Below the pieces are notes generated by a model. It was not told the DNA's origin. It saw only the letters and a list, made by a program, of their open reading frames with translations, and did no database searches. A stretch of DNA of 37,059 nucleotides from an uncultured Candidatus Peribacteria bacterium (GTDB lineage Bacteria; Patescibacteriota; Gracilibacteria; Peribacterales; Peribacteraceae): positions 1 through 37,059 of the forward strand of contig CAYMAT010000007.1 in the NCBI GenBank assembly GCA_964388495.1, read 5' to 3'. How positions within the stretch are numbered: position 1 is the stretch's first letter; every line of letters starts with the position of its first letter. The translations under genes and the position numbers were made by a program. This document shows, one piece after another, positions 15,337-33,262 of this stretch.

Positions 15337-16347
15337 ATGGAACCCCTGGAGACATCCGCCGCCCCACCGGCCCCCGCACCCGCATTCGCGCGTCATGCCG
15401 TGACCGTCCTGCTGCATGTCCTCTTCATCGCCGGCGGAATGGGGGCGATGACCGCATTGGGCAACCTGGCACCGGACCCCGACCACGTCTTACGGGAAAG
15501 CCAGGAGAAGTACGCCACCCAGCACTACGACGCGGTGATTGTGGGGAATGCGCTGGCATTCAACCAGATCGACACCGCACTTCTTTCCTCCGCCACCGGC
15601 ATGAGCGTGGGGAGGTTGACCAAAGGCGATTCGGAAATCCCGCTGTGGTACATGGCCGCACGCAATTTGCTCGGCAGCATGCGCATGCCGCCGCGCATGG
15701 CATTGATCGTCTTCAATGACTTTGAACTCACGGACCCCTCCCGCTATTCGCCGGGCTACCTGCTCTCGGACGTGCAGTCACTGCGTGAAAAGGACGATCC
15801 CGTGGCCGATGCAAGGGTGCTGAAGCCGGCTATGGGCCAACTCCAGTACCTGTTGTACCAAAATTTCCGCAGCTACCGGCTCAAGACCGCGGGCCACCGG
15901 TGGCTGGAACGCACCGTGCAGAATGCGGTTGCGGCATCGCTCTTCCTCCCCAAGGACAGCGTGCAGCGGATGGTGGAGAAAATTATTCCGGAAACGGAGA
16001 CACCCATTCCCTTTGAACCCACGGACGTGCGCAAGCCGGAGGAGAACATCGCCGGTTCGTTTCTGCCGCCGCTGCTGGATGAACTGAAACGGCAGGGCAT
16101 CCGTCCGGTTCTGGTCCGCGCGCGGACGCGGCGCTACACGGAACGGGCGTCCAATGCCAGCACCGTCAAGTACATGGACGCCCTGCGCGCGTACGTACAA
16201 TCACGCGGCGGGGTGGTTTTGGACTATGCGGAGGACCCGCGCATCACCCGCGATCATTTTGCGGACAGCCTGCATTTGAACCTCCTGGGACAGAAGACCT
16301 TCACGGAAATCCTCGCGCAGGACATCTCTTCCCTCCCGGCCCAATGA
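15337..16347 (+). CDS. Membrane-anchored SGNH-like accessory protein of the MBOAT system (AlgJ/PatB/DltD-like role), copy 1
   Basis: The start lies 2 nt after the MBOAT stop (TGAacATG). It has an N-terminal TM helix. It is clearly paralogous to 23071..24087 (YDAVIVGNALAF / PLWYMAARNLLGS / FND / DSLHLN..G). Confidence 0.7.
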   Translation: MEPLETSAAPPAPAPAFARHAVTVLLHVLFIAGGMGAMTALGNLAPDPDHVLRESQEKYATQHYDAVIVGNALAFNQIDTALLSSATGMSVGRLTKGDSEIPLWYMAARNLLGSMRMPPRMALIVFNDFELTDPSRYSPGYLLSDVQSLREKDDPVADARVLKPAMGQLQYLLYQNFRSYRLKTAGHRWLERTVQNAVAASLFLPKDSVQRMVEKIIPETETPIPFEPTDVRKPEENIAGSFLPPLLDELKRQGIRPVLVRARTRRYTERASNASTVKYMDALRAYVQSRGGVVLDYAEDPRITRDHFADSLHLNLLGQKTFTEILAQDISSLPAQ

Positions 16348-18413
16348 CATCCCTGCTGGATCCCAAATCCGTAGCGGTCATCGGCGCCTCTGCCACACAG
16401 GGGAAGGTGGGGCATGATATTTTGAGCAACCTGCTCATCCAGAAATTCCGCGGACATGTGGTTGCCGTGAACCCCAAGGGCGAGCGCATCCTGGGATGTC
16501 CCACCTATGCATCCGTCTCCGCCATGCCGGAAGCCGTGGACCTGGCGGTGGTGGCCATTCCCGCGCCCCTGGTTGCGGCAACGCTCAGGGAGTGCGGGGA
16601 AAAAGGCATCAAGAACGTGGTAGTGATCACCGCGGGGTTTAAGGAAACGCATACCCCTGAAGGGGACAAGCTGGAGGAGGAACTCCTCACCATCGCCAAA
16701 CAGTACAACCTCACGCTGGTGGGCCCCAACTGCCTGGGAATCCTGCGCCCTTCCATCGGCCTCAACGCGTCGTTCGCCAAGGACATCCCGCCCGCAGGCA
16801 ACGTGGCGCTCATCAGCCAATCCGGTTCCACCGCGGTGGCCATCATGGACCAGAGCGCGCAATTGGGACTCAGCTTCTCCGCGGTTTTCAGCATAGGGAA
16901 CAAAACGGTCCTGAACGAGGTGGACTATCTGCGTCTCTGCATGGACGACGACAAGACCACGGCAATCGGGCTGTATCTGGAGAACATCGATCACGGAACC
17001 GAATTTCTGGAGACCGCACGGGCAATCTCCCCCCGCAAACCGATCATTCTCTTGAAGGCGGGAACGACGGAGCAGGGCCGGCGCGCCGCGCAGTCCCACA
17101 CGGGCGCGCTTGCGGGAAGCGATGCGCCGCTGCAGACGCTCTGTGACCAGGCGGGCATTCATCTGACGCGCACGATGGATGATTTTATCGATACCATCGC
17201 CGTTTTGAGCAACCAACCCGCACTCCCCTCCCGCAATATCGCGATCGTGACCAACGCCGGAGGACTGGGGATCCTGGCAGCGGACGCCGCAACGCGCGCA
17301 GGCCTGACACTCCCCGCCCTGGCGGAAGACGGACAGAGGGATCTGGCGCCAAAACTCCCCGCATCGGCCAGCCTCCGCAATCCCTTTGACCTCATCGGAG
17401 ACGCAAAAACGGACAGGTACGAGGCGGCCATCCGCGCCATCCGCAGCGACCCCAACATCGACGGCATCGTGGTCCTGCTCTCGCCGCAGATCATGACACC
17501 CTGCTCGGAAATCGCGGATGTGGTCATACGGGAGATGCGCAACGTGAAACTCATGCCCATCACCACCTGTTTCATGGGCGGGGACATTGTGATGGACGCA
17601 CGCCGCAAGCTGCAGTCGCACAATATCCCCACCTTCCCCACGCCGGAGCGCGCCATTAACGCCCTTGCCCGGCTGTTCCCGCGCAAGGCAACGCTCACGG
17701 GAATGAGTTGTGTGCCCGACGGCGATACATCCAGAAAGGCAAAAGAGCTGATGAAGGGTTCCCAAGGTCTTCTGGACGATGACAGGGTAAGGGATCTGTT
17801 CTCGCTCTTTGGCCTCCCCGCCGATCCTTACCGCATCTGCAAAACGGCAGAGGAAGCGGCGGATGCTGCCGCGGAATTGGGGTACCCCGTAGCGGTGAAG
17901 ATCCATTCCCCGGATATCCTGCACAAAACCGATGTCGGCGGCGTTCGTTTGGGACTTAAAAGTAATGACGATGTACGTACAGCATTCCGCGAGATCATGG
18001 CGACTGTGGGCAACAGATCGCCGGCGGCCAGGGTGGAGGGGGTATTAGTCCAGAAAATGCTTCCGGCAGGCCACGAATTCATCGTGGGCGCCACGCGGGA
18101 CCCCAATTTTGGTCCGCTGATCATGGTGGGGCTGGGCGGCATATACACGGAACTGTTCCGGGACACCGTTTTCCGCATTGCGCCCATCGGCAAGGAGGAT
18201 GCCTACCGCATGCTGGAGGAGTTGCGATCGTGGAAAATGCTCCTGGGCATGCGCGGCAACCAGCAGAGCGATATTTCTGGTCTTGCGGAACTCATTGGCA
18301 ACGTCAGCAATCTTGTCTGCAATTGCCCGGAGATCAGGGAACTGGATTTAAACCCCGTGATCGTGCGGAGCGACGGAGTACATATTGCCGATGCGAAGAT
18401 CGTCGTAGGGTAA
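16344..18413 (+). CDS. ADP-forming acetyl-CoA synthetase (acetate--CoA ligase, fused alpha-beta)
   Basis: An N-terminal CoA-binding domain (KSVAVIGAS..GKVGH), then a succinyl-CoA-synthetase-like domain (VALISQSGS), then a C-terminal ATP-grasp domain (GYPVAVKIHSPDILHKTDVGGV). ATGA overlap with the upstream gene. Confidence 0.85.
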   Translation: MTSLLDPKSVAVIGASATQGKVGHDILSNLLIQKFRGHVVAVNPKGERILGCPTYASVSAMPEAVDLAVVAIPAPLVAATLRECGEKGIKNVVVITAGFKETHTPEGDKLEEELLTIAKQYNLTLVGPNCLGILRPSIGLNASFAKDIPPAGNVALISQSGSTAVAIMDQSAQLGLSFSAVFSIGNKTVLNEVDYLRLCMDDDKTTAIGLYLENIDHGTEFLETARAISPRKPIILLKAGTTEQGRRAAQSHTGALAGSDAPLQTLCDQAGIHLTRTMDDFIDTIAVLSNQPALPSRNIAIVTNAGGLGILAADAATRAGLTLPALAEDGQRDLAPKLPASASLRNPFDLIGDAKTDRYEAAIRAIRSDPNIDGIVVLLSPQIMTPCSEIADVVIREMRNVKLMPITTCFMGGDIVMDARRKLQSHNIPTFPTPERAINALARLFPRKATLTGMSCVPDGDTSRKAKELMKGSQGLLDDDRVRDLFSLFGLPADPYRICKTAEEAADAAAELGYPVAVKIHSPDILHKTDVGGVRLGLKSNDDVRTAFREIMATVGNRSPAARVEGVLVQKMLPAGHEFIVGATRDPNFGPLIMVGLGGIYTELFRDTVFRIAPIGKEDAYRMLEELRSWKMLLGMRGNQQSDISGLAELIGNVSNLVCNCPEIRELDLNPVIVRSDGVHIADAKIVVG

Positions 18414-18465: not shown

Positions 18466-19683
18466 GTGTCCCCTCTCGTCTCCGTCTGCATCCCGGTCTA
18501 CAAACCCAAGATCCCCTATCTGCTGGAGGCGCTGGAGTCGGTGTGTCGGCAGACATTTGAGGATTACGAAATCATCATCCGCGATGACGCATCGCTCCCG
18601 GATGTCGGTGAACTGAAAAACGCGCTTCCCGCTAACCCCAAAATCTCCGTACACCGGGGGGAGAAGCGGCTGGGCATTGGCGGCAACTGGAACGCAACCT
18701 GCGATCTGGCCCACGGCAAATACATTGCGCTCCTCTTCCAGGATGACCTCTGGTACCCGCGGTACCTGGAACGCTGCGTGGCGGTTTTGGAAGCCAACGA
18801 CAACGTGGGGTTTGTGGCATGCGCGCACGATTATGCGATACAGGATCAGACGGGAGCGGCAGCCACGGGCGTGTATGCCGAGGTGCAGGAGGCACGGAGC
18901 CACATTCCACACGGGACGCTCACCAAGGATTTCTTCATCCAATGGCTCAATATGGGGCTGCGACCCAATATCGTAGGCGAACCCAGCTTTGTGGTGATCC
19001 GGAAATCGCTGCTGGAAAAGATCGGCGGGTTCCACAAAACCATGCACCAGGGGCTGGATGCGGAGGCATGGAGCAGGATGCTGATCCACATGAACGGCTT
19101 TTGGATCACGGAAAAACTGGGCAGCTTCCGCGTGCATGCGGCGGGCGCCACGGCACAGAACGAGGAAGCGGGACGCGGGATGCTGGACCGCATCAAAACC
19201 ATCCGCATGGTATGGAGACGGGCCATAGACCGCGACGTGAAAAAAGCCGCACGCAGGGCTTTCCGCCGGGAGGGGGTAAAACTGGGGAAGCGCGCCATGA
19301 CCCGCAAGACCAGCCACCCGCTTCTGCAGTTCGTCCGGTACCTCTTTGTAGGCGGCTCCGCGTCCGTGGTGGACTTTGCCGTCTATGCCGGACTGCTGAT
19401 GCTCATGGGGTTCAACCCGTACCTATCCGCGTTTGCGGGTTACACCGTGGGCTTTGCCTGGAACCACTTCCTGAGCGTGGTGTGGATATTTGAGTCCAAG
19501 CATGATCGGACAAAAGAAGTGGCAATGGCATATGCCATTGCCATCGGAGGCCTTGCCTGGACGGAAATTCTGCTCTGGATCTTCACGTTTGCGGGCATTG
19601 GCGCGCTTGTTAGCCGTTTGATCGCCATGGTTCTGGTACTGGTCTGGAATTACGTGATGCGCAAGAAGTTCGTCTTTGCCTGA
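18466..19683 (+). CDS. GT2 glycosyltransferase fused to a C-terminal GtrA-like membrane domain
   Basis: VSVCIPVYKPKIPYLLEALESVCRQTFEDYEIIIRDDAS is a GT2 signature. The C-terminus LLQFVRYLFVGGSASVVDFAVY...WNHFLSVVWIF...VWNYVMRKKFVF is GtrA-like. TATACT at 18454-18459 lies 6 nt before the GTG. Confidence 0.8.
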   Translation: MSPLVSVCIPVYKPKIPYLLEALESVCRQTFEDYEIIIRDDASLPDVGELKNALPANPKISVHRGEKRLGIGGNWNATCDLAHGKYIALLFQDDLWYPRYLERCVAVLEANDNVGFVACAHDYAIQDQTGAAATGVYAEVQEARSHIPHGTLTKDFFIQWLNMGLRPNIVGEPSFVVIRKSLLEKIGGFHKTMHQGLDAEAWSRMLIHMNGFWITEKLGSFRVHAAGATAQNEEAGRGMLDRIKTIRMVWRRAIDRDVKKAARRAFRREGVKLGKRAMTRKTSHPLLQFVRYLFVGGSASVVDFAVYAGLLMLMGFNPYLSAFAGYTVGFAWNHFLSVVWIFESKHDRTKEVAMAYAIAIGGLAWTEILLWIFTFAGIGALVSRLIAMVLVLVWNYVMRKKFVFA

Positions 19684-19710: not shown

Positions 19711-21342
19711 ATGACCAGAAAGGTAGCCATCATCGCAGGTGCGGGGCCGGCAGGTTTAACTGCAGCGTACGAACTCCTCGTCCGAACGGATATTCAGCCC
19801 ATCGTCTGCGAGGAAACGGGGATCATCGGCGGCATCGCCCAGACCTTCAATTACAAGGACAACCGCATCGATATAGGCGGTCACCGTTTTTTCAGCAAGA
19901 GCGAGCGCGTGATGAAGTGGTGGTTCAATATCCTGCCCCTGCAGGGCGCTCCTTCCGCGGACACGGCAGAAAAAAACCACGAGATCGATTACGCCGCGGA
20001 GGCGATCGTGAAGTTCCTGTGCCCGGAGTGCGCGGAAGGACGGCCGGAAAAACGGACCGCACCAGACCCTGAAAAAGAGGATGAGGTGATGCTGCAGCGC
20101 CCGCGCCTCTCCCGCATCTTCTACAAGCGGCACTTTTTCCCCTATCCCATTGGCATCACGCTCTCCGTGGCGCGCAAGCTGGGCCTAGGGAACACCTTCT
20201 TGATAGGACTCAGCTACATCAAGGCCCAACTGTTTCCCATCAAACCCGAGCAATACCTGGATGCCTTCTTCACCAACCGTTTCGGATACCGGCTGTACAA
20301 GACCTTCTTTGAGAAATACACGGAGAAGGTGTGGGGTATCCCCTGCAGCCAGATCCGCGCGGACTGGGGGGCGCAGCGCGTGAAGGGCCTCTCGCTCAAG
20401 CGCGCGGTGATGCACGCGGTGAAAGACCTGCTGAGCAGCGATTTTAAGAAGGCGCAGGAAGAACGCGAGACCAGCCTGATCACGCGTTTTTACTATCCCA
20501 AATTCGGCCCGGGCCAGATGTGGGAAACGGTGGCCAGGCAGGTCCAGCAGTGCGGAGGCGAGGTGCACATGAAGACGCGCGTGGTGGCTGTAAAAGTGAG
20601 CAGCGGAAAGGTTACGGCCGTGACGCTGGAGAACGCAGACACAGGCTCGCGCGAGGAAGTCGCCTGTGATTACTTCTTCTCCACCATGCCCATCAAGCAC
20701 CTGATCGGCATGATCAGCCCCCGGCCGGAACCCAAAGTGGTGGAGGTTGCGGAGGGGCTGCAATACCGCGATTTTTTGACGGTCGGCCTGCTGCTGAAGA
20801 AGCTCCATGTGCTGGAAAAAGGGAATGGCGCGCAGACGAGCGTGCCCGATAACTGGATTTACGTGCAGGAGGGCGACGTGCGCGTGGGACGCATCCAAAT
20901 CTTCAACAACTGGAGCCCGTACATGGTAAAAGACTGGAAGAACACCGTGTGGATTGGCCTGGAATATTTTGTGAACGAGGGCGGTGACCTGTGGATCAAG
21001 CAGGACAAGGAGATGATCGATCTGGGCGTGAGCGAGATGGAAAAGATCGGCTTTGTGAAAAAGGACGACGTGCTGGACGCGTGCGTGCTGCGCATGCCCA
21101 AGGCTTACCCCTCATACTGGGGCAGCTACGAGCAGCTGCACGTGGTGCGCGATTACGTGAACACGGTGGAGAACATGTTCCTGGTAGGGCGCAACGGCAT
21201 GCACCGCTACAACAACCAGGACCACAGCATGCTCACGGCAATGCTGGCGGTGGACAACATCGCGGAAGGCAGGACCGACAAATCCAACCTGTGGGACGTG
21301 AACCTGGACATGGTCTACCACGAGACAAAAAAAGGAGGCTGA
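19711..21342 (+). CDS. NAD(P)/FAD-dependent oxidoreductase (amine-oxidase / UDP-galactopyranose-mutase-like fold)
   Basis: [19 protein letters not shown] is a dinucleotide-binding motif, and [11 protein letters not shown] follows. I prefer ATG 19711 over the track's GTG 19702. TATAGT at 19698-19703 sits 7 nt upstream of it. Confidence 0.8.
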
Positions 21343-21440
21343 CAGCAATACAGCTATAGAAAGGTTCTGTATGGAGAGATAAAAGAGGGTAAATTCATTT
21401 TTTTAGCTTATGGTAAACAAAAAAGTAGTGTTAAGTTTTT

Positions 21441-21468
21441 TTGACTTCACAGAGACTGTCCGTAAAAT
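21441..21468 (+). promoter_or_regulatory. Sigma70-like promoter (TTGACT-16 nt-TAAAAT) for the 21475 ORF
   Basis: TTGACT at 21441-21446 and TAAAAT at 21463-21468. GTG 21475 is 6 nt downstream, so the transcript is predicted to be leaderless. Confidence 0.55.
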
Positions 21469-21474
21469 TCCCTG

Positions 21475-23067
21475 GTGATACTCACGGAGGACACCGCCGA
21501 AAACCTTGCGCAAGATGCGGGCATCATGGCGCGCACGCATGCCAACGACCCCCCAAATTGGGACAAGATAATAAAAATTGTTTCTGCGGAACCCGCAGGA
21601 TTTGGAAGCAACAGAATGTTCCGAAAAAAGCTCATCCAGCTCCTTAGTCGGACAACACATCCGCTGGATGCCAGCATTAAAACCTTCAATGACGACATGC
21701 TGATCATCTCCCGTTACAATATATACGAGCAGCAGATTCTCGGGGATGAGGAAACCAAAAAAACAGCTGGCCAACTGTATATGGAACAGGAGCGTCATTC
21801 GCGGGAAATGGGTGAAAAACTGATGGAACATGCACCCAAATTCACGGAATGGGTCCGTGCTCAGGCAGACGCGTTGGCGGAACTGGTCCGGGAAAACAAT
21901 GCATGGAAAAACGGCACATTGCAGGAAAAAATGGATGTTCTGACGCAAGCCCTGTCTTGCATCAATATGTACGCCGCTGCTTGGAGCAGATCTTTCAATA
22001 CACGTCCGGGGTTTTCTACTGAAATAAGCTCTGTGGGGCAATTGACACAATCTGCCCTGCTCTCGCTGGTACAGCGGGTCCTCTTTACCCTGAAACCCTC
22101 CGACGATATTTCTGCCGCCTTGCAGAACATGCCTGAATGGCAATACAAAAAACTGTACACAGCCCCCGCGGATAAGAGGTTTCCAATATCGTATTTGGGC
22201 CCTAAAACGATTTCTCTGGCAAAAATACTGGGGTCGGGATTGGCGAGAATGAAAAAACTGCACGGCATACCCGAAACAGCCGAGGATGCCATTGGCTATG
22301 CCCCTCTGCCTCCCGTGCAAAACGACGTGCGCATGACCATCCTGGGAACCAAGATGAATCTTTTATACATCCAGATCCCTTTGGGAGGCGGAACGTTCCC
22401 CGTGGAGCAAATCATGGGAGAAAACCTAGAGGATGATCAGGAATTTTTTGCCGCCTACCGGGAGAAAACGGATACATGGTTTTTTGAAAGCATCACGGAG
22501 TATGCGGGGATGCGCGATTTTCTATCCACTGGAACGGAACAGTCGCTGAAAACCCTTCTCTATTGGAGCAGGCAAAAGGTGGATCGCATCCTGAAAGACA
22601 ATCCATTGGTTCACAAAAACCTGGATCAGATATCGAAATTCCATATCGAGATTGATCAAAACAACGAATATACCCTCTTTTGCGATCCTACCACCCAGGA
22701 AATTCTGGATGGACTCCAAATAACCGGTCCACAAACAAAAGAAGAGGAAAAGCAGTCCATTACCGCCTCCGCCCCTCCTCTCCACCAACGCTGCAAGGAA
22801 ATCTTCAGCACCCGTGACATTACCTCACTCCAATGGAACCGGGTCAGCTGGTTGCTGAGACACGCAGGTCTTGTGGAAACGCATGAAGGCAAAGGAAGTC
22901 ATATTAAATTCACGAATCCAGAAAACGAGAGTTTTTGCACGGTGTCCTATGCCTTCCACCACTCATCCACCGTGGATATCCCCTATGGAACCATCGCACG
23001 CTGGCTCTCTCAGGCAAATTTGACCGACGCACAAATAGGTCTGATAGAGGGCTTCCTGGATCAATGA
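21475..23067 (+). CDS. Hypothetical protein (530 aa) with a C-terminal HicA-like domain
   Basis: Long AT-richer ORF. The last ~70 aa read WLLRHAGLVETHEGKGSHIKFTNPENESFCTVSYAFHHSSTVDIPYGTIARWLSQANL. This fits the HicA (YcfA) toxin pattern, including the GSH histidine. The start could instead be ATG 21526. Confidence 0.7.
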   Translation: MILTEDTAENLAQDAGIMARTHANDPPNWDKIIKIVSAEPAGFGSNRMFRKKLIQLLSRTTHPLDASIKTFNDDMLIISRYNIYEQQILGDEETKKTAGQLYMEQERHSREMGEKLMEHAPKFTEWVRAQADALAELVRENNAWKNGTLQEKMDVLTQALSCINMYAAAWSRSFNTRPGFSTEISSVGQLTQSALLSLVQRVLFTLKPSDDISAALQNMPEWQYKKLYTAPADKRFPISYLGPKTISLAKILGSGLARMKKLHGIPETAEDAIGYAPLPPVQNDVRMTILGTKMNLLYIQIPLGGGTFPVEQIMGENLEDDQEFFAAYREKTDTWFFESITEYAGMRDFLSTGTEQSLKTLLYWSRQKVDRILKDNPLVHKNLDQISKFHIEIDQNNEYTLFCDPTTQEILDGLQITGPQTKEEEKQSITASAPPLHQRCKEIFSTRDITSLQWNRVSWLLRHAGLVETHEGKGSHIKFTNPENESFCTVSYAFHHSSTVDIPYGTIARWLSQANLTDAQIGLIEGFLDQ

Positions 23068-23070
23068 CAT

Positions 23071-24087
23071 TCACCGGATGAGCGGCCTGAGCGCTTCCGT
23101 GAGAATGCCCGTGAAGACCTTTCTGCCCTCCGGATTCATGTGGTCGTCTTTGCTGCCGCGGTAATACTGCGGCTGCAGGCGCTCCTCGTTGGTGAAATCG
23201 ATCAATACGCCGTCCCTTTGCTCAATGTATGTGCGCAGATCGGCCATGTAGCGGACTGTCTTCTTGCTCTGCGGTTTTCCGTCGGCATATTTCTTCTCAC
23301 GCACGCGGATGAAGATCAGCTGCATGTCGTATTTGGCTGCCTCGTCAAAGAGCAGCGGAAGGTACGAATCGCCTATGGCGATATCGAAGTTTTTCTGCGC
23401 GGTGGGCCCGGGGGTATTGGACGCATTGCGGCGGGATACGAATTTCACGATATGGTTACCGATGTCTTTTTCACTCCTGCGCGTGAACAGCGAGGCGAAG
23501 GCGCGGGATTCATCGTATATTTCCGTGCGGAGATCCTCTTTGATCGCATAGAGCGGGATATTCCGCTGCAGCGTTGCGCGGATCCATCCCTTCACCGGGA
23601 CAAGCGTTTTATCATAGAGAACGTCATCGTCCGGCTGAGCGATGGAAAGCAGGTCCGCCTCCTGGTATCCCACGGCACCGTTGGTGGTGGTGGTCAGGTC
23701 CGCATCGCGGAAGAAAACGAGAACCTGCCGTGGCGGCTCCTGGAGACGCGAACCGATGAGATTTTTAAGGGCCAGATACCAGTACGGGGTGCGCGACCCC
23801 CCGGTGGAAGTATCCACAATGCTGACCCCCAAATCCTTGCCAAGCGTGTCAAAATCCACGTTCACGTACGCCATGGAATTGCCCAAAACCCCCACATCGT
23901 ACTTTTCGGTTTCATGCTGTTTTCGCCAATCATCCAGGAGCGATGGACTTGCGCCCGCGCGGACGGCGACGGCGTTGGCCCCCGTTATGATCAATACAGC
24001 CAGCGCGACCACGTAGAGCCCAAAGAGCGCCAGCTTCCAGAAGCGGACGGGGGCGATAGCCTGCGGTTGAACGTTCTGGTCGGTCAT
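23071..24087 (-). CDS. Membrane-anchored SGNH-like accessory protein of the MBOAT system, copy 2
   Basis: ATG 24087 lies 1 nt after the MBOAT-2 stop (TGAcATG). It has an N-terminal TM helix. It is paralogous to 15337..16347 (YDVGVLGNSMAY / PYWYLALKNLIGS / FRD / DDHMNPEG). Confidence 0.7.
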   Translation of the reverse strand: MTDQNVQPQAIAPVRFWKLALFGLYVVALAVLIITGANAVAVRAGASPSLLDDWRKQHETEKYDVGVLGNSMAYVNVDFDTLGKDLGVSIVDTSTGGSRTPYWYLALKNLIGSRLQEPPRQVLVFFRDADLTTTTNGAVGYQEADLLSIAQPDDDVLYDKTLVPVKGWIRATLQRNIPLYAIKEDLRTEIYDESRAFASLFTRRSEKDIGNHIVKFVSRRNASNTPGPTAQKNFDIAIGDSYLPLLFDEAAKYDMQLIFIRVREKKYADGKPQSKKTVRYMADLRTYIEQRDGVLIDFTNEERLQPQYYRGSKDDHMNPEGRKVFTGILTEALRPLIR

Positions 24088-24088
24088 G

Positions 24089-25471
24089 TCAGAACTGGAA
24101 GTAGACGAAGTCCCCCGCCGCCTCCTGCCCCAGAATGAGGATGCAGGCAATGAGGCACGCATACATGACACCGCGCCCCAGCGGGTGCCGCACAAAGCGG
24201 TCCATGACCACAGGCACAGTCCAGAGAATCACAAAAAAAGCGGCGAAGCTGAGCCATACGGCCATCAGGGAAATCCCCCAGGATTCGCGCTCCCCTGTGG
24301 AACTGCGGACGCTCTGCAGCAGCCACGTGAGACTGGATGCCTTGAAGAGGATCCATCCCAACACAGTCCAAAAGAACATCACCGTGCGAGCGGTCCACTT
24401 GATGACGGCATTGCGGGGAACCCAGTGGCCGTCCATCTTGAGCAACTGGTAGACGAAAAGCAGGATGCCGTAATACAGGCCCCACAGCAGAAAGTTGACG
24501 GTGGCGCCGTGCCACAGGCCGCTGGCGCCCATGGTGACCAGCGTGGTGAAGAGGAGCTTGAGCTTACTGTCCGTACGGGAGCCGCCCAAAGGAATATAGA
24601 CATATGTAGTGAACCACTTGGAGAGCGAAATGTGCCAGCGCCTCCAGAAATCGGAAGGAGTCAGGGCAAGATACGGGTAATTGAAGTTCTCCATCAGATT
24701 GATGCCCAGCAGCCTGGCGCTTCCGCGCGCCAGGTCCGTATACCCGGAGAAGTCCGCAAGGATCTGGACGGCAAAGCAGAGGCCCCCCGTGAACAGAACG
24801 GTGAGGGGGACGGGGTTCCCCAGGAAAATGCGGTCCACATACGGAGAAATGTTGTCGGCAATGACGAGTTTTTTGAAAAACCCGAAAATCATGAGGGACA
24901 ATCCCCCGCTCAGGTTGGCCCAGTCCCACGCATGACGCTCGGCAATCTGCGGAAAAAACGTGCCGGCCTTTTCAAAGGGGCCGCTGATCAGCTTGGGGAA
25001 GAATGCCAGGAACACACTCACCTCCAGCCATCCCTGGCGCGGCACCTCGCCCTTGTAGGCGTCTGCCACCAAGCCCACCGCCTGCAGGGAGTAGAACGAA
25101 AGACCCAGCGGCAGAATGACATTGAGCAGGCTCTGAACCACCGGACTTGCCGTTTTGGGATTGATGAAATCCCCGATGAAATACCCCCAGTATTTGAAGA
25201 GCACCAGGATCCCGATATTGAAGACGATGCAGGCGACGAGAGGTAGGCGACTCCGCTGCTCTTTTTCCTTGGACCACAGGGCGTGCAAGCAAACATACGT
25301 GACCGCCGTGCTGATGAGCAGGAGCACGCAATACCACAGGCTCGCCCAGCCATAAAACAGGTAACTTCCCACCAGCAACTGGACGTTGCGGACCTTCTGG
25401 GAATCCGTCATCCAGTACACGCAACAGAAGACCGCAAGGAAGGCCAGATAGTGCAGGCTGGTGAACTGCAT
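24089..25471 (-). CDS. MBOAT-family membrane O-acyltransferase (AlgI/DltB/PatA-like), copy 2
   Basis: MQFTSLHYLAFL..., LSFYSLQAVGLVADAYK, FFPKLISGP, DFWRRWHISLSKWFTTYVYIPLGGS, GLWHG. The start is ATG 25471. The upstream 126 codons in the ORF track are junk that overlaps the divergent promoter. Confidence 0.85.
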   Translation of the reverse strand: MQFTSLHYLAFLAVFCCVYWMTDSQKVRNVQLLVGSYLFYGWASLWYCVLLLISTAVTYVCLHALWSKEKEQRSRLPLVACIVFNIGILVLFKYWGYFIGDFINPKTASPVVQSLLNVILPLGLSFYSLQAVGLVADAYKGEVPRQGWLEVSVFLAFFPKLISGPFEKAGTFFPQIAERHAWDWANLSGGLSLMIFGFFKKLVIADNISPYVDRIFLGNPVPLTVLFTGGLCFAVQILADFSGYTDLARGSARLLGINLMENFNYPYLALTPSDFWRRWHISLSKWFTTYVYIPLGGSRTDSKLKLLFTTLVTMGASGLWHGATVNFLLWGLYYGILLFVYQLLKMDGHWVPRNAVIKWTARTVMFFWTVLGWILFKASSLTWLLQSVRSSTGERESWGISLMAVWLSFAAFFVILWTVPVVMDRFVRHPLGRGVMYACLIACILILGQEAAGDFVYFQF

Positions 25472-25501
25472 AAATCTATTTATTTTAACATAAAAATACG
25501 C

Positions 25502-25507
25502 TATAAT
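25502..25507 (+). promoter_or_regulatory. -10 box (TATAAT) for the beta-helix gene
   Basis: TATAAT at 25502-25507, 6 nt upstream of ATG 25514, in an A/T-rich divergent intergenic region. Confidence 0.5.
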
Positions 25508-25513
25508 CAATGG

Positions 25514-27010
25514 ATGCTTTGGAACAGCAGAATCAGAAACGGCATGGGTATAACGCTGTCTGTAGCCGCCTTGCTGTGCCTGATTGCGTACCAGTTTCCC
25601 GTCCGTTTTTGGATGCAGGAAAAGTACGTGTCGCTCCACCAGACGTTTTTGCCGCATGCCAACGTCAAGACCGTGAAACTGAAAAGGGCCAGGCTGCTGT
25701 CCACCCTCGCAAAGGAATATTACGTGAAGAGCGGGGATCTGGTTTCCGCCAACCCCCTGCTCCGGCCCAGTGACGTGATCCCGGAAAAACTGTCGGTGCT
25801 CATCCCCGCCGACGCACTCGCCTCCGCCCCCGTCCCCACGGACCTGCAAAACAGACCCCGAGCACAGATCGCGTTCAGCACCAATGAAAACGCCATTGTC
25901 ATCAGCGGCGAGGGAGCTGTAGCCCGTCTTGCGGACATCGCACGCGTCATGAATGACCCCGCAATTCTTGAGCAGCGGGACAATGCCTGGCTGCTCTCAC
26001 GCAACATTTTGCTCATAGGCGGGGCGATCTTGGATCTGGAGGAAAAAAGCTCATGGCTGAGGCTGCGGAGCGATGCCGACATAACCGTGAACATCACGGC
26101 GGAAGACGGAAACATCGTCATGCGGGGGATGCGGGTGTCTTCCTGGGATCCATCCACGCAAAGCCCCGACACCAACACGGATGACGGAAGGGCGTACATC
26201 ACCCAGATGGCGGGGAGAATGGATATCATGGACAGCGAGATTTTCTCGCTGGGCTCCGAACACGGCCCCGCCGACAAATCGGGCGCCATCTACGGCCTTT
26301 CATGGAGAACGACAAACGCGGAGCATGACGACATGCTGGTGGCGGGCAGTATTGCGCGCTCCTCGGTTCACGATAATTATTACGGGCTTTACTCGTACGG
26401 TTCCACGGCGCTTCGCATAGTCAAAAACGAGTTTTACAGAAACATCCAGTACGGCATTGCGCCGCATGATGATTCGCGCTTTTCCGTCATCCAGAAAAAC
26501 TACGTTCACGACAACGGCAAGCACGGGATCATGCTGAGTAACGGCTGTAACGACAACCTTATGGAGGGGAACATCGTCGTCCACAACGGACTCAGCGGCA
26601 TCATGATCAGCAAGCTCTCCAAGAGGAACACAGCACGCTCCAATATTGCGGCGTTCAACGCGGCGGGGATCACCCTGAACGACAGGTCATCGGAAAACAC
26701 CCTGGATGCGAACGCGTCACTGGATAACAAAAACGGTATCGAGATCCGCAGAATGTCCAGCGCCAACGTGGTAAAGGCCAACGTGGTCCAACGCAACGTG
26801 AACGGAGTGGTCATCAACAGCAGATCCTATGACAACGATGTCTTCGGCAACCTGGTGGAACAAAACGGCACGGCGGTCTCGCTCAAGGAGACATCGGGAA
26901 ACTACCTGCACGACAACTTCACCTACGCGGGGAACCAGAAGAATGTCACGGCAGCGGCATCGGCAAAAGACAATGTGATCCGTTTCTTTGGGGATAACGG
27001 GGATTTCTGA
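25514..27010 (+). CDS. Right-handed parallel beta-helix protein, AlgG-like (polyuronate C5-epimerase / CASH-domain family), membrane-anchored or exported
   Basis: N-terminal hydrophobic segment GITLSVAALLCLIAY. Repeated ~22-aa units of the N-x-(V/I)-x-x-N type are present. YGIAPHDDSRFSVIQKNYVHDNGKHGIMLS resembles the AlgG YGFDPHDRS...HGIIIS region as I recall it from memory. Confidence 0.7.
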   Translation: MLWNSRIRNGMGITLSVAALLCLIAYQFPVRFWMQEKYVSLHQTFLPHANVKTVKLKRARLLSTLAKEYYVKSGDLVSANPLLRPSDVIPEKLSVLIPADALASAPVPTDLQNRPRAQIAFSTNENAIVISGEGAVARLADIARVMNDPAILEQRDNAWLLSRNILLIGGAILDLEEKSSWLRLRSDADITVNITAEDGNIVMRGMRVSSWDPSTQSPDTNTDDGRAYITQMAGRMDIMDSEIFSLGSEHGPADKSGAIYGLSWRTTNAEHDDMLVAGSIARSSVHDNYYGLYSYGSTALRIVKNEFYRNIQYGIAPHDDSRFSVIQKNYVHDNGKHGIMLSNGCNDNLMEGNIVVHNGLSGIMISKLSKRNTARSNIAAFNAAGITLNDRSSENTLDANASLDNKNGIEIRRMSSANVVKANVVQRNVNGVVINSRSYDNDVFGNLVEQNGTAVSLKETSGNYLHDNFTYAGNQKNVTAAASAKDNVIRFFGDNGDF

Positions 27011-27928
27011 TCAGGCCTGCAGGTTCCTGGTGTACCACTCCACGGATTTCTGGATGCCGTCCTTGAAGGAAACCTTGGGCTCGTACCCCAGGGCCTGCTG
27101 GGCCTTGGTGATATCCGCGATGTAACGGATGACCTCTCCGGTACGGGAAGGTCCAACGGAAACCTCCGACGTGCTGCGGAGCAGGCGCTTGAGGGTCTTG
27201 GCCAGGTCGGTCAAATATGTCCCCTGCCCGTACGCGAGGTTGTAGGTGTCGTTTTTGACGGCATCGAATTTTTCGATGGACTGGATGATGCCCTCCACGC
27301 AGTCGTCGATATAGGTGAAGTCCAGGCACTTGGCCTCTCCAAAGACGGCTACGGGCTCATTGCGGCGCATCCTGCCGATGAAAACGGGAACGATGCGGTT
27401 GCTCTCGTCGTACATTCCGTAAACGTTACTGAACCGGAAGATGATGTGGTCGATCTTGTAACAGCGCGTGTAGGACTCCACCAAAGCCTCACCCGCTATC
27501 TTGCTGGCGGTGTACGGACTCTCGCACTGCTGGATGGTGGCCAGCTCCTCCTTGTACTTGCGCGCGGTGATATTGCCGTAGGTCTCGCGCGAGGAAGCGA
27601 AGATCACTTTGCGGATCCCCTTCTGCCGTGCGAATTCCAGCACGTTGAACGTGCTGAGCATGTTGTCCCGAGCGCGGGAAGGGTCTTCGACAAGATCATA
27701 GACGCGGGCGTTTGCGGCCAGATGCACGATAATGTCCACATCCTCACTGGGCATCTTTTGCGTGGCGTCCCAGTCCCGCAGATCCGCCAGCGTGGTGATG
27801 GCATCCACTTCTGGCCGCCATTTGTTCTTCACCCAGTCCACCCCCACCACGTCGTAGGAACGCTGCAGGAGGGTCTCGCAGAGACGGGTACCGATGGTGC
27901 CGGAGCTTCCGGTGACGAGGATCTTCAT
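27011..27928 (-). CDS. NAD-dependent nucleotide-sugar epimerase/dehydratase (SDR family)
   Basis: MKILVTGSSGTIGTRL (Rossmann GxxGxxG) and YTASKIAGE (YxxxK). Its stop directly abuts the stop of the convergent beta-helix gene. Confidence 0.85.
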   Translation of the reverse strand: MKILVTGSSGTIGTRLCETLLQRSYDVVGVDWVKNKWRPEVDAITTLADLRDWDATQKMPSEDVDIIVHLAANARVYDLVEDPSRARDNMLSTFNVLEFARQKGIRKVIFASSRETYGNITARKYKEELATIQQCESPYTASKIAGEALVESYTRCYKIDHIIFRFSNVYGMYDESNRIVPVFIGRMRRNEPVAVFGEAKCLDFTYIDDCVEGIIQSIEKFDAVKNDTYNLAYGQGTYLTDLAKTLKRLLRSTSEVSVGPSRTGEVIRYIADITKAQQALGYEPKVSFKDGIQKSVEWYTRNLQA

Positions 27929-27987
27929 GGCCCGTAGCGTAACGGAACAAGCAGCTGGAAGCCAGAAGAGCTGCTACACTTCCCGCA

Positions 27988-29082
27988 ATGCTCTCCGTCG
28001 TCTTCCCCACGTACAACGAATCCAAAAACCTGCCCGCAATCGTGGCAAGGGTTGAGGAGGCACTGCGCGGCACGCAGTTTGAAATCATCATTGTGGATGA
28101 CAATTCTCCGGACGGAACATGGAAAGTGGCGCGTGAGATTTCCCTGACTTTCCCCAGTCTGCGGGTGATCAGACGCGTGGGGCGGCGGGGACTTTCCTCC
28201 GCGGTCATTGAGGGCTTTCTGGCGGCGCGCGGCGATATTTTTGTGGTAGCCGACGCAGACGGACAGCATGACCTGAGCCTGATCCCCAAGCTGGCAAAGG
28301 CGGTAGCGGAAGGCAACGGCATAGCGCTGGGCTCCCGCTACACGGAAGGCGGAAGCGTGGAGGGGTGGGACGAGCGCCGGCATTTGATGAGCCGCATCGC
28401 CACGCGCATGGCCATGAGCCTGTGCAAAGTGAAGGTGAGCGACCCCATGAGCGGTTTTTTCGCCGTGTCACGCAGCGCATTTGAAGAGATCCTGCCCCGC
28501 CTGAATCCCAAGGGATTCAAGATCTTGCTCGATCTCCTGGTGCACGCACCCGCAGGCATGAAGGCAAAGGAGATTCCCTTCACGTTTGGTTCCCGCATGC
28601 ACGGAGAGAGCAAGCTCTCCCGCCGCGTGCAGATAGAGTTCCTTGAATACTTGTATGAAGCCACCATGGGGCGGTTTATCCCGCTGACCCTGGTGGAGTA
28701 CTGCGTGGTGGGTGCCATGGGCGTTGTGGTGAACCTTGCGGCATATTTTGCGGTATCGCGCATGCTTTTGGGTGAGGGCGCTGCGGGAGTGACGGGAGTT
28801 TCCATCCCGGTGGTCGCAGGCATTGAGGCAGCCGTATTGTTCAACTTTTACGTCAACAATTCCTGGACCTTCTCTCATGCAAAGCTGAAAGGCCTCAACG
28901 CCATCACGGGCTTTGCACGCTACAACGTGATCTGCGCGCTTGGCGCATTCGCCAATATCGCCATCACCACATACGTCTACAGCCAAGGCATGACGGAAGT
29001 GGCCAGTCTTGCAGCCGGCGCCTGTGCGGGGATGATCTGGAACTACACCATCAGCCTGCTCTTTACCTGGAAAGCCGCATGA
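27988..29082 (+). CDS. Polyprenol-phosphate hexosyltransferase (Dpm1/GtrB/ArnC-like GT2) with a C-terminal GtrA-like membrane domain
   Basis: LSVVFPTYNESKNL...IIIVDDNSPDGT...VVADADGQHD...DPMSGFF...FTFGSRMHGESKLS. The C-terminal helices include VLFNFYVNNSWTF. TACACT at 27975-27980 lies 7 nt before the ATG. Confidence 0.85.
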   Translation: MLSVVFPTYNESKNLPAIVARVEEALRGTQFEIIIVDDNSPDGTWKVAREISLTFPSLRVIRRVGRRGLSSAVIEGFLAARGDIFVVADADGQHDLSLIPKLAKAVAEGNGIALGSRYTEGGSVEGWDERRHLMSRIATRMAMSLCKVKVSDPMSGFFAVSRSAFEEILPRLNPKGFKILLDLLVHAPAGMKAKEIPFTFGSRMHGESKLSRRVQIEFLEYLYEATMGRFIPLTLVEYCVVGAMGVVVNLAAYFAVSRMLLGEGAAGVTGVSIPVVAGIEAAVLFNFYVNNSWTFSHAKLKGLNAITGFARYNVICALGAFANIAITTYVYSQGMTEVASLAAGACAGMIWNYTISLLFTWKAA

Positions 29083-29387
29083 AAACCGCGCGCAGGGAAT
29101 ATGCGGCATTCATCCTGGCCTGCGCCGTTGTGGCCGTCATACTGGGTATGCGCGCATGGCGTATCCGCGCTCTGTGGAATGCGCAGGAGAGGAAGGAAGT
29201 CCAAGCATCCCTGCAGGCAATTGTGGATGAACGGGGATGGCTGCTTTCGGACATGGAGATTGTCAGCATCCAAAACGGCGTCGTAAAGCTGAACCACAGG
29301 TCGCATATCCTGGGACAGGATCCTTCTGCGTGCTTTGTAATGACAATGTCCACACGTTCTCTTGCCCCATGCGCCGCAAAAATCTGA
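29079..29387 (+). CDS. Small membrane-anchored hypothetical protein (102 aa)
   Basis: ATGA overlap with the upstream GT2 gene. One N-terminal TM helix (AAFILACAVVAVILG). It overlaps the GT-C start by 19 nt. Confidence 0.45.
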   Translation: MKTARREYAAFILACAVVAVILGMRAWRIRALWNAQERKEVQASLQAIVDERGWLLSDMEIVSIQNGVVKLNHRSHILGQDPSACFVMTMSTRSLAPCAAKI

Positions 29388-30574
29388 TTATCGCAGGCTG
29401 TCTGGAACTCCTGGCCGTGGCGTTCGCCAACTGGCACCAGTACCTGGGCCTGCAGACAGACGAGGCCAAGTATTTACTCAATATCCCCTATCCCCACCCG
29501 CCACTCATCCGGACCGTCATGTCTATGACGGAATTCATCCCGTTTCAGGAACTGTTCTGGCGCCTGGCATTTGCCACCATCCTGGTACAACTGGTGTGGC
29601 TGGTATGGGATATGGGTAAGGACCTTGGGCACCGCGAGCAGGTGATCCTCTGCGGGGCATATTTTTCCTGCACGGCGTTTCTGCTCTATGCGGGAACGGT
29701 GATGCTCTCGCCCGTGTTCGTCATGTTCGCAATTGCATTCCTCTGGCTTCGGTCGCGGAAGGAGATTGCGCAAAAACACTGGGGACTGATTGGGCTTCTC
29801 TGGCTCTGTTGCGTGTTCTCCGTTTTCCAAGGAGTGCTTCTGGCACCGCTGGCGTGGAATGTCCTGCGACGCGGGGCAGGCTCAACGCGAGCAACATGGA
29901 TGACCCTGGTACCGCTGGCGCTTCTGGGTCTGCACGTCTTGGGCAGTCCGCTGACCATCGCCACACTCATGATCCATGGCGACCAGGGCATCACGGGATC
30001 AGTATTTGAACGCCTGAGCGGAAGTCTCACCCTCCTGGCGGTGGGCGGCGGCGGTATCGGAACCATCGCGGGAATACTCGGTTTGCTTAAAAAGCGGAGC
30101 CCAGACCTCCTGACCACCGCATTTCTGGTATTGGCATACACCACGCTTTCCGTGCCATTCCCCTTCTACGCCATTCTGTGGACTCCGCTGCTGCTTGCGG
30201 GAATCCATGATCTGCTGCGTACGCGTGAATTCAAGGAACACATCCCCCTCCTCCCCGCGTTCGCCTTGAGTGGGGCAATCCTGGCCTTCGTGATGCGCCC
30301 GGTGACGCCGCATACGGAAGCCACGGACACGATGAATATGGTGATCCCGCAGATGGCGCACTGCACCCGTGCGGAGTCCTGCAGCGTCATGATCTCCGGG
30401 AATTTTGGGCACCAGTGGCAGCACGCGTCTCCGTACCCAGTCCTCCGCTACGTGCCCGCACGCGCGGCGGACGCGGCAGCAGTGGTGTGCCTGTCCGCAT
30501 GCGAGCCCATGTTCAACACGGCGGGCTGGAAGCGATTGGAAAACACGCCGGTGGAGGCGTGGGTAAGAAAATAG
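29369..30574 (+). CDS. GT-C fold glycosyltransferase (ArnT/PMT_2-like, uses a polyprenol-phosphate sugar donor)
   Basis: Polytopic membrane protein. The first-loop hallmark TDEAKYLLNIPYPHPPL matches the D-E-x-x-Y ... HPPL pattern. I place the start at ATG 29369 (MRRKNLII). Confidence 0.65.
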   Translation: MRRKNLIIAGCLELLAVAFANWHQYLGLQTDEAKYLLNIPYPHPPLIRTVMSMTEFIPFQELFWRLAFATILVQLVWLVWDMGKDLGHREQVILCGAYFSCTAFLLYAGTVMLSPVFVMFAIAFLWLRSRKEIAQKHWGLIGLLWLCCVFSVFQGVLLAPLAWNVLRRGAGSTRATWMTLVPLALLGLHVLGSPLTIATLMIHGDQGITGSVFERLSGSLTLLAVGGGGIGTIAGILGLLKKRSPDLLTTAFLVLAYTTLSVPFPFYAILWTPLLLAGIHDLLRTREFKEHIPLLPAFALSGAILAFVMRPVTPHTEATDTMNMVIPQMAHCTRAESCSVMISGNFGHQWQHASPYPVLRYVPARAADAAAVVCLSACEPMFNTAGWKRLENTPVEAWVRK

Positions 30575-32230: not shown

Positions 32231-33178
32231 TCAAATTTTGTAGTACTCCCTGTACCACTGGACGAATTTGGGGATCCCCTCCTTGATAGTGGTCTTAGGT
32301 TCAAATCCAAGCATTTTGCGTGCCTTCTCAATACTCGCAAGGCTTGCCATGGTGTCGCCCGGCTGCATGTCCATGTAGTTCTTCTTTCCTTCCTTGCCAC
32401 AGGCGGTTTCGGCCCCCTTGATGTAATCCATGAGCTCCTCTTTGCGACCGCAGCCCAGGTTGAAGATCTCTTCGGGATAGTTTTTGTCGATGGACGCGAT
32501 GATGCCATTGGCGATGTCCTCCACGTACGTGAAATCGCGCTGCATTTTGCCGTGGCCAAAGACATTAAAGGGTCGATCGTGCAGGATGGCGTCCGTAAAG
32601 AGGAAGAGCGCCATGTCCGGGCGGCCGTAGGGACCGTAGACCGTGAAGAAACGGAGCCCGGTGACCGGGATTCCGTAGAGTTTGTGGTAGGTGTGGGCCA
32701 TCAGCTCGTTGTCTTTCTTGTTCTGTCCGTAGAGCGAGAGCTGGTCATCCGTGCGGTCGGTCTCCTCTGCGGGAAGCTTGCCGTTGCCGCCGTAGACGGA
32801 ACTGGAACTGGCGTAGATGAATCCGCCGATCTTCTGGAGACGCGCCTCGTCCAGGACTTCAAAGAAGCCGCGGATATTGATATCGATGTATTCCTCCGGG
32901 TGTTCAAATGAATAACGGACGCCGGCGATGGCCGCCAGGTGACACACGCGGTCGCAACCTTTCATTGCCTCGCGCACCGCAGCTCTGTCCTGGATATTGG
33001 CCTGCACAAAATGGAAGTTCTTGTGCTTTTTGAGGATCGCCAAACGCGCCTGCTTGAGGGTGGGATCGTAATAGGCGTTCATGTTGTCAAAACCCACCAC
33101 GGTATCGCCGCGGTCCAGCAACTTGAGTGACGTATGGAAGCCAATAAAACCGGCAGCACCGGTGAGGAGGATCTTCAT
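32231..33178 (-). CDS. UDP-glucuronate 4-epimerase-like SDR
   Basis: MKILLTGAAGFIGFH, ...YGQNKKDNELMAHTYHKLYGIPVTGLRFFTVYGPYGRPDMA is typical of the UDP-GlcA 4-epimerase subfamily. The start is ATG 33178. It is divergent from ugd. Confidence 0.8.
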   Translation of the reverse strand: MKILLTGAAGFIGFHTSLKLLDRGDTVVGFDNMNAYYDPTLKQARLAILKKHKNFHFVQANIQDRAAVREAMKGCDRVCHLAAIAGVRYSFEHPEEYIDINIRGFFEVLDEARLQKIGGFIYASSSSVYGGNGKLPAEETDRTDDQLSLYGQNKKDNELMAHTYHKLYGIPVTGLRFFTVYGPYGRPDMALFLFTDAILHDRPFNVFGHGKMQRDFTYVEDIANGIIASIDKNYPEEIFNLGCGRKEELMDYIKGAETACGKEGKKNYMDMQPGDTMASLASIEKARKMLGFEPKTTIKEGIPKFVQWYREYYKI

Positions 33179-33237
33179 GGATACAGGATACAGAAGGTAG
33201 AATGCAGAATACAGAACAGAGAACGCGGAATTCCCTA

Positions 33238-33262
33238 TTCCACATTCTCTCTTCCACATTCT
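33238..33262. repeat. Direct repeat ttccacattct x2 (period 14) abutting the -10 box; a candidate operator
   Basis: Copies at 33238-33248 and 33252-33262. The second copy ends in the T of TATAAT (33262-33267). GGAATTCC palindrome at 33227-33234. Confidence 0.6.

Follow-up and report, generated by a model that had tools for sequence, protein, structure and literature searches.

An AlgG-family beta-helix protein with a degenerate catalytic motif beside an MBOAT–SGNH gene pair in a Peribacteria bacterium

Why does a relative of the alginate epimerase AlgG lie next to a pair of predicted O-acyltransferase genes in a stretch of DNA where no alginate synthase can be recognised? The question is raised by 37,059 nucleotides (hereafter the window) from an uncultured Candidatus Peribacteria bacterium, contig CAYMAT010000007.1. 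Three intact open reading frames (ORFs) form the locus. A membrane-anchored beta-helix protein is encoded on the plus strand (25514-27010), and a membrane-bound O-acyltransferase (MBOAT copy 2, 24089-25471) and its SGNH-like partner (23071-24087) are encoded on the minus strand. The original prediction, made from the sequence alone, saw here the tailoring set of alginate biosynthesis, namely MBOAT, acyltransferase partner and C5-epimerase, in a new gene context. We find that the beta-helix protein is indeed related to C5-epimerases by sequence and modelled fold, and that its catalytic motif has lost an aspartate found in every relative that we compared.

The beta-helix protein is a homologue of AlgG-type C5-epimerases

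The 498-residue beta-helix protein was compared with 177,635 Protein Data Bank (PDB) sequences using phmmer, with hits retained to an E value of 10. There are eight matches in all, and every one is a mannuronan C5-epimerase (ManC5-E). The AlgG entries 4NK6/4NK8 have E values of about 5e-16, and in the top match, P. syringae AlgG (5e-16), the YGIxPHD core aligns in register. The two proteins are about 22% identical. Among family models, the NCBIfam AlgG model NF038177 ranks first (E 2e-25), followed by NosD (1.6e-9), although the match to NF038177 covers only residues 127-413 and its 89.3 bits do not reach the equivalog cutoff of 700. The Pfam scan returns only the generic Beta_helix (PF13229, E 1e-25) and NosD, with no polysaccharide lyase (PL) or glycoside hydrolase (GH) family matched.

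An AlphaFold (AF2) model based on 35 homologues (predicted local distance difference test, pLDDT, 81.6) consists of an N-terminal helix (residues 16-45), a linker and a right-handed parallel beta-helix (about 118-492). A hydrophobic stretch at about 11-32, with Arg6 and Arg8 ahead of it, means that the modelled N-terminal helix fits a membrane anchor with the beta-helix domain predicted to lie outside the cell. Used as a Foldseek query, the model retrieves AlgG at E 4e-17 with template modelling scores of 0.60-0.72. AlgE4 comes second at 7e-8, followed more weakly by tailspikes (about 1e-6), while PL6 lyases and NosD reach 1e-4 at best.

By sequence and by modelled fold, the protein is thus a homologue of AlgG-type C5-epimerases and not of lyases, glycosidases or NosD proteins, and the similarity goes far beyond chance. 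The resemblance to AlgG had originally been proposed from the sequence alone and illustrated with the peptide YGIAPHDDSRFSVIQKNYVHDNGKHGIMLSNGCNDN, which is found in the translation. It now holds in all three comparisons (phmmer 5e-16, NF038177 2e-25, Foldseek 4e-17). Likewise, when family models and folds are set against lyases, glycosidases and NosD, the C5-epimerases score best and the protein does not cluster with any of the other classes.

With the AlgG proteins of Pseudomonas and Azotobacter (4NK6, 4OZY), the window protein shares the right-handed parallel beta-helix, the Y-G-I-x-P-H-D core and a predicted extracytoplasmic location. The two differ at the N-terminus, where the window protein has a membrane anchor; AlgG, by contrast, we take to be a soluble periplasmic protein with a signal peptide. 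Net charge and isoelectric point (pI), taken as a proxy for an electropositive polyuronate groove, are uninformative, the pI of 5.4 being mid-range among relatives (4.6-9.1). A LysM-like segment between anchor and beta-helix, an impression from one alignment, was dropped after Pfam scans of the fusion proteins described below lent it no support.

The catalytic motif has lost its first aspartate

The core of the window protein reads Y313-G-I-A316-P-H318-D319. Tyr313 and His318, which correspond to Tyr314 and His319 of AlgG, are present and are invariant in the family. Absent is the first Asp of the D-P-H-(D/E) motif shared by AlgG, AlgE and ManC5-E proteins (Asp317/Asp324 in AlgG; Asp152 in AlgE4). 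Position 316 is Asp in all 34 database relatives of the alignment and in all 90 gene copies from 81 genomic loci, or 124 of 124 in total. The motif had been written as (D/A)PHD in the original prediction, and for the alanine alternative we found no precedent: the 34 proteins and the 90 genomic copies all have DPH.

A second active-site position is altered as well. The window protein has Asn343 at the equivalent of AlgG Arg345, which we take to be the neutraliser of the substrate carboxylate. Relatives have Lys (60), Arg (11) or Glu (16) at this position, and Asn is unique to the window.

Across 32 relatives from the Candidate Phyla Radiation (CPR), Chloroflexota and Pseudonocardia, 59 alignment columns are at least 90% conserved, and the window protein keeps 54 of them. 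The five departures are D316A, E327Q, H361S and two conservative Ile-to-Met changes, the first three all lying at or near the catalytic coils. Since AlgG itself has Ser/Ala at the 361/327 positions, only D316A and Asn343 are of direct mechanistic weight. As far as the alignment can tell, the losses concern ionisable residues close to the active centre, and the positions that define the fold are intact.

What such a loss does is known from Pseudomonas aeruginosa. AlgG(D324A), altered at the same DPHD position, yields no guluronate (guluronate fraction, FG, 0), yet this protein still protects the nascent polymer and scaffolds, and its overproduction raises acetylation (PMC4436075). The matching residue, Asp152, is one of the four catalytic-site residues of AlgE (PMC7385640), and brown-algal ManC5-Es have been judged genuine by their DPHD motif (PMC11468063). 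The role of Arg345 in AlgG is cited in PMC4444821; according to the same source, Asn can neutralise the uronate carboxylate in some alginate lyases.

Because the same substitution is found at the same DPHD position, we regard the window protein as a natural D324A-type variant. It descends from the AlgG/ManC5-E line, but by model score, motif, the Arg345 position and operon context it falls outside AlgG proper. The laboratory mutant sits in a full alginate machine, whereas the change in the window occurs naturally, is fixed in two strains or more and affects a protein that has no synthase partner. On this basis we lean towards a beta-helix protein that no longer epimerises.

Relatives carry the epimerase together with a synthase

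The closest relatives are 33-37% identical to the window protein (E 1e-57 to 2e-72). They come from three groups: CPR/Patescibacteria (Moraniibacteriota, Roizmanbacteria, Levybacteria, Saccharibacteria and Peribacteraceae), Chloroflexota (Caldilineae and Ardenticatenaceae) and Pseudonocardia. The window protein is roughly equidistant from all three, at about 35% identity.

In 73 of 81 loci of these relatives, a processive-type glycosyltransferase family 2 (GT2) synthase is encoded directly upstream, and 60 of the 81 encode GT2 and beta-helix as a fusion, a single ORF of 900-1030 residues. Of the 81 loci, 61-62 also carry a short UDPG/GDP-Man-dehydrogenase-like (GMD-like) gene without a C-terminal domain, and 18 have a PL7 'Alginate_lyase2' gene. 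Homologues of the relatives' GT2 synthase, short dehydrogenase and PL7/PL14 lyases were sought in the window and none was found. Similarly, no Pfam or NCBIfam match to an Alg8-type or other processive GT2, Alg44, AlgK/E or an alginate lyase was obtained among window ORFs of at least 200 residues. The observation that Alg8/Alg44, AlgK/E and AlgL are unrecognisable in the window therefore stands in both family scans and homologue search. Its interpretation changes: the set without a synthase had been taken for a gene context different from the described alginate systems, and an epimerase without a synthase turns out to be an exception within its own family and not a new type of system.

No MBOAT or partner homologue lies within 10 kb of the beta-helix gene at any of 79 loci, and none of 71 partner-family loci has an AlgG-like beta-helix gene. 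The divergent arrangement, whose conservation in relatives had been put forward as a check, is thus not conserved (0/79 beta-helix loci, 0/71 partner loci). The triad of MBOAT, partner and beta-helix is a juxtaposition in one species, and the norm of the family is an epimerase with its synthase.

The dehydrogenase, GT2 and ManC5-E-like modules of Pseudonocardia, Chloroflexota and CPR bacteria contain the sequences closest to the window protein, and in both the beta-helix domain is preceded by a membrane segment and a linker. In an alignment with the fusion proteins, the N-terminal anchor and linker of the window protein fall on their final membrane segment and linker. Unlike the window, the modules usually have an adjacent or fused synthase and a short dehydrogenase, and they show an invariant DPH and no MBOAT nearby.

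The fusions deserve a description of their own. GT2 is N-terminal and the beta-helix C-terminal, for example at L007:8483-11236 and L022:8456-11359, as in 58 further loci among L005-L083. In CPR and Chloroflexota, the short dehydrogenase (about 290-340 residues) usually precedes the fusion gene, and a PL7 alginate-lyase-like gene often accompanies it. From its gene content, this looks like a minimal synthase-epimerase module for an alginate-like polyuronide. We found no description of the CPR/Chloroflexota fusion proteins in the searchable literature, which is not proof of novelty. The module is widespread in both lineages and suggests alginate-like polyuronides in groups not known for them. 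It also bears on the much-discussed question of a bacterial origin for brown-algal alginate genes, for which the dehydrogenase, GT2 and ManC5-E genes of actinobacteria are one source under discussion (PMC8307928; PMC11468063). The fusion module in relatives may be a more valuable lead than the window locus, so far a single-species curiosity.

The MBOAT has a partner from an uncharacterised SGNH family

MBOAT copy 2 (460 residues) is a polytopic membrane O-acyltransferase of the AlgI/DltB/PatA type. It belongs to PF03062 (E 5e-19; 69.1 bits, cutoff 27), matches the DltB structure 6BUG at E 1.6e-18 and keeps the conserved His motifs RWH and WHG. With 130.8 bits against a cutoff of 375 for the DltB model TIGR04091, it is not a DltB equivalog, and the window yielded neither DltA nor DltC.

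The partner (338 residues) has an N-terminal membrane anchor and a predicted extracytoplasmic domain of SGNH fold, and is a putative terminal O-acyltransferase. The protein itself has no Pfam or NCBIfam match, PF16822 (ALGX) included. An exhaustive HMMER profile search places it in a family of 1476 cluster representatives at E<1e-3, and the idea of a tiny family, which came from word-indexed searches returning three and then two proteins, was abandoned. Among 47 members scanned, 23 match DUF1574 weakly, 10 match Lipase_GDSL_2 and one matches ALGX (E 0.013). The family profile also matches the GDSL proteins 4PPY and 4IYJ. With a model of the partner (pLDDT 62), Foldseek returns GDSL lipases, TesA and DltD at a probability of about 1.0 and E values of only about 1e-3; neither AlgJ nor AlgX ranks among the best 50 matches.

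Block I reads G-[ND]-S in 46 of 47 members and G-N-S in the window protein, with Ser71 as the serine. Asn109, Asp297 and His316 are invariant in the family and Asp315 is also conserved. The order of residues, Ser71 followed by Asp315-His316, is the canonical SGNH order, as opposed to the permuted D-x-H...S of AlgX/AlgJ. The missing PF16822 match, the canonical order and the fold matches together rule out an AlgJ/AlgX protein. Judged by family profile and model, the partner belongs to the SGNH superfamily (GDSL/DUF1574/DltD-like) and to an uncharacterised family within it, the window protein itself having no direct DUF1574 match.

By analogy, the partner would be a functional counterpart of AlgJ, PatB and DltD, that is, the extracytoplasmic acyl-transfer partner of an MBOAT (PMC9487903). 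An adjacent MBOAT gene is found at 50 of 71 metagenomic loci of the partner family, a set collected with a four-sequence partner alignment. The same layout, an MBOAT gene adjacent to that of a membrane-anchored extracytoplasmic SGNH protein, is seen in AlgI-AlgJ/AlgX, PatA-PatB (peptidoglycan), PatA1-PatB1 (Bacillus secondary wall polymer) and DltB-DltD; the two-component logic is reviewed in PMC9487903. The window partner differs from all of these in belonging to none of the AlgX, DHHW, DUF459/PatB and DltD families, DUF1574 and generic GDSL proteins being nearest. Of the tailoring set originally proposed, then, the genuine MBOAT with its extracytoplasmic partner survives, while the partner is not AlgJ/AlgX and the epimerase has lost its motif.

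The locus is compact and reproducible

The ATG of the partner gene and the stop codon of MBOAT copy 2 are one base apart, a spacing from which we take the two genes to form an operon. The ATG of MBOAT copy 2 (25471) and that of the beta-helix gene (25514) face away from each other across a gap of exactly 42 bp (25472-25513), just as first reported. The beta-helix gene is monocistronic, with a convergent gene downstream of it.

At only 42 bp, this AT-rich spacer, whose sequence was read directly, must hold both promoters, which therefore overlap. A perfect TATAAT occupies 25502-25507 and stops 6 nt short of the beta-helix ATG. On the minus strand, a TTGATT-17-TAAAAT match, in which TAAAAT is -10-like, ends 10 nt before the ATG of MBOAT copy 2. 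The number of promoter-like matches in the spacer is not above shuffled expectation, and a search of the spacer for repeats, palindromes and operator-like repeats found none. There is no room for a Shine-Dalgarno leader, and the mRNAs of both genes may be leaderless or nearly so.

Two independent assemblies contain the locus. The first, L084, matches the window at 99.66% identity across 7.5 kb and shares its gene order and its APHD motif; the second, L085, is 100% identical at the locus. Since the two agree, neither the arrangement nor the Ala in the motif is an assembly artefact. Compared with the second strain, the beta-helix ORF is intact, with three synonymous changes and one changed codon. 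The MBOAT copy 2 and partner genes show no changes, and the sample is too small for a ratio of nonsynonymous to synonymous substitution rates (dN/dS). By this comparison the beta-helix gene is not decaying, although there are too few substitutions to demonstrate purifying selection.

The differences between strains are unevenly placed. From 21745 to 26155, the window and L084 are identical except for one 3-bp indel at 22739-22741, and all 23 substitutions fall in 26156-28651. The boundary lies inside the beta-helix gene and suggests a recombination breakpoint between strains.

Possible function of the locus

We propose that the beta-helix protein is an orphan of the AlgG family that binds a glycan, probably without epimerising it, and that the O-acylation pair may have co-opted it to modify a wall polymer; we put the probability of this combined account at roughly 0.45. 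MBOAT copy 2 would take an acyl group, probably acetyl, from acyl-CoA in the cytoplasm and move it through the membrane. On the other side, the SGNH partner (Ser71/His316/Asp), itself anchored in the membrane, would transfer it to a cell-envelope glycopolymer, which may be a TagA/WecB-linked secondary wall polymer. The beta-helix protein would be an offshoot of the AlgG/ManC5-E polymer-level uronate C5-epimerases, standing alone here. No longer epimerising, it would probably serve as a surface-exposed, membrane-tethered glycan-binding or scaffold protein. It may keep the polymer in place or offer it to the adjacent O-acyltransferase, in a manner comparable to the scaffold role of AlgG(D324A). 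That the beta-helix protein and the MBOAT pair are really coupled in function is the more tentative part, and we would put it somewhat below the account as a whole. Ugd, encoded nearby, does not by itself establish a polyuronide, and a uronic-acid substrate is conjecture.

The homologies, the damaged motif, the predicted topology, the gene order and its absence from other loci come directly from the analysis; the lost activity, the glycan binding, the tie to the acylation genes and the nature of the polymer are our inferences. Several points weigh against this account. Inactivity is deduced from mutagenesis of proteins that are only about 22% identical to the window protein, and His318, Tyr313 and Asp319 are all retained. 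An altered but active site is possible, because Asn can take over carboxylate neutralisation in some lyases (PMC4444821). Coupling to the MBOAT pair is an adjacency in one species and no relative shows the pairing, and the rest of the genome, beyond the 37 kb examined, could encode a GT2 synthase.

The explanation that survives best after this one, although we consider it somewhat unlikely, is that the adjacency is incidental. The beta-helix gene would be an orphan remnant of a dehydrogenase-GT2-epimerase module, or be served by a synthase elsewhere, and the MBOAT-SGNH pair would act independently. The absence of any pairing between MBOAT and beta-helix genes in the 79 and 71 related loci fits this well, as does the almost constant tie of the beta-helix family to GT2 and dehydrogenase genes. 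The window anchor also aligns with the final membrane segment and linker of the fusions, which is consistent with descent from, or fission of, such a fusion. MBOAT copy 1 and its partner, elsewhere in the window, function with no beta-helix neighbour, and the monocistronic beta-helix gene with its convergent neighbour fits as well. However, the 42-bp divergent spacer forces the promoters to overlap, which often means co-regulation; the beta-helix gene sits in an island of envelope-glycan genes; and its ORF is intact and mostly conserved.

Closer to the original prediction, and in our view quite unlikely, is an active C5-epimerase with a variant APHD motif. Its substrate would be a teichuronic-acid-like wall polymer containing uronic acids, and MBOAT copy 2 with its partner would O-acylate this polymer too. 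AlgG is by far the closest known protein, the His, Tyr and second Asp of the core are kept, and the gene is intact in a second strain. The close spacing of the divergent start codons, the proximity of Ugd and 4-epimerase-like SDR genes, and TagA and WecB, which point to a wall-linked polymer, would all suit such a system. Set against this, the Asp that is missing here is invariant in all 124 relatives, its replacement abolishes epimerisation by AlgG and it is catalytic in AlgE. The Arg345 equivalent is lost too, the triad is conserved at none of the loci examined, and the window has no synthase where relatives nearly always have one adjacent or fused. Ugd may instead feed the nucleotide-sugar interconversion of GT2-GtrA-dependent glycosylation genes.

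Finally, a depolymerase (PL or GH) trimming or remodelling envelope or foreign polysaccharide is very improbable. Epimerases and lyases do share mechanism and fold, bifunctional AlgE7-type enzymes exist and some lyases have Asn at the charge-neutralising position (PMC4444821). PL6 lyases, tailspike depolymerases and polygalacturonases also turn up lower in the Foldseek list. However, AlgG outscores the lyases, hydrolases and tailspikes by 9 to 13 orders of magnitude, no lyase or hydrolase is among the PDB sequence matches, and no PL or GH Pfam family is matched. Beta-elimination, moreover, would depend on the very catalytic centre that has been damaged in this protein.

If the account of a non-catalytic acyltransferase partner holds, the scaffold function of an AlgG-type protein has outlived its chemistry and been reused in wall-polymer tailoring, and the locus offers a handle on an uncharacterised and fairly large DUF1574-like SGNH family. 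A bolder version treats the protein as a C5-epimerase that lost its activity in nature and now serves the MBOAT-SGNH machine of a monoderm-type bacterium as a dedicated, non-catalytic subunit, binding the wall polymer and offering it to the acyltransferase as a natural counterpart of the AlgG(D324A) scaffold; a variant of it keeps the APHD protein as an active epimerase with a rewired site and a teichuronic-type polymer. We consider this proposal doubtful, and a pseudo-epimerase subunit of this kind would be the first 'pseudo-epimerase' adaptor in cell-wall tailoring.

Other genes in the window

In alginate operons, algG neighbours the acetylation genes algI, algJ, algF and algX, and the operons encode Alg8, Alg44, AlgK, AlgE and AlgL; the window has instead the wall-polymer linkage genes tagA and wecB. 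The four sugar and wall-polymer genes named in the original prediction are all confirmed: Ugd (33380-34693; TuaD-like, 454 bits), the UDP-GlcA 4-epimerase-like short-chain dehydrogenase/reductase (SDR), which we would call GalE/TviC-like (within 32231-33259), WecB (within 2748-4292) and TagA (8139-8933, minus strand; PF03808, E 3e-58). Around the locus, two GT2-GtrA fusion proteins, three SDRs and Ugd form an envelope-glycan island, with TagA and WecB elsewhere in the window. No tRNA or Rfam feature was found in the window.

One GT2-GtrA fusion (27988-29082, plus strand) is an ArnC/PgfS-like polyprenyl-phosphate glycosyltransferase, and the second lies at 18466-19683. The first is followed by a polytopic membrane protein of 445 residues (29237-30574, plus strand) with no Pfam or PDB sequence match. 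The sequence TDEAKY in its first loop is reminiscent of the DExxY motif known from GT-C glycosyltransferases; this reading by eye is the sole support for the GT-C idea. The two may form an extracytoplasmic glycosylation pair. An Arn-like pentose pathway composed of Ugd, an SDR and GT2-GtrA was set aside as a weak possibility, the SDR at 27011-27928 resembling a 4-epimerase and not a decarboxylase.

The second MBOAT and partner pair, copy 1 (13904-15334 and 15337-16347), is 44% and 30% identical to copy 2. It is flanked by a 2-oxoacid:ferredoxin oxidoreductase (10621-13344, minus strand) and an ADP-forming acetyl-CoA synthetase (ACS; 16344-18413). The order oxidoreductase/flavodoxin, MBOAT, partner, ACS recurs in two distinct relatives (L003, L087), and hints at a link between the copy 1 acyltransferase and acetyl-CoA supply; in the wider partner family it is seen at 0 of 71 loci. 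The copy 1 partner (plus strand) has GNALA in place of G-[ND]-S, so that the putative nucleophile Ser is absent, and it also differs at Arg127 (Asn) and Asp315 (Leu). Going by these residues, it may be catalytically inactive, which would make it a second degenerate envelope-tailoring protein in the window.

A plus-strand ORF at 8352-9677 overlaps TagA. Only its C-terminal part, from about 8980 on, matches a thioredoxin-like lipoprotein family; its true start probably lies downstream of TagA, leaving the two genes divergent. A Cys-rich ORF of 235 residues without a family match occupies 35680-36387 on the minus strand, and the window ends (36400-37059, plus strand) inside an S-adenosylhomocysteine-hydrolase-like ORF (MSHVKDPSLAPQGKLNIEIAERRMG...), identified by eye only.

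Lower G+C content (0.45-0.50, compared to 0.54-0.62 elsewhere) is found at 1-1000, 5001-8000 and 21001-23000. Proteins of 416 residues (62-1312), 765 residues (5213-7510) and 530 residues (21475-23067), all without a family match, are encoded there. The last of these directly adjoins the partner gene and has a weakly HicA-toxin-like C-terminus. These three segments may be acquired DNA.

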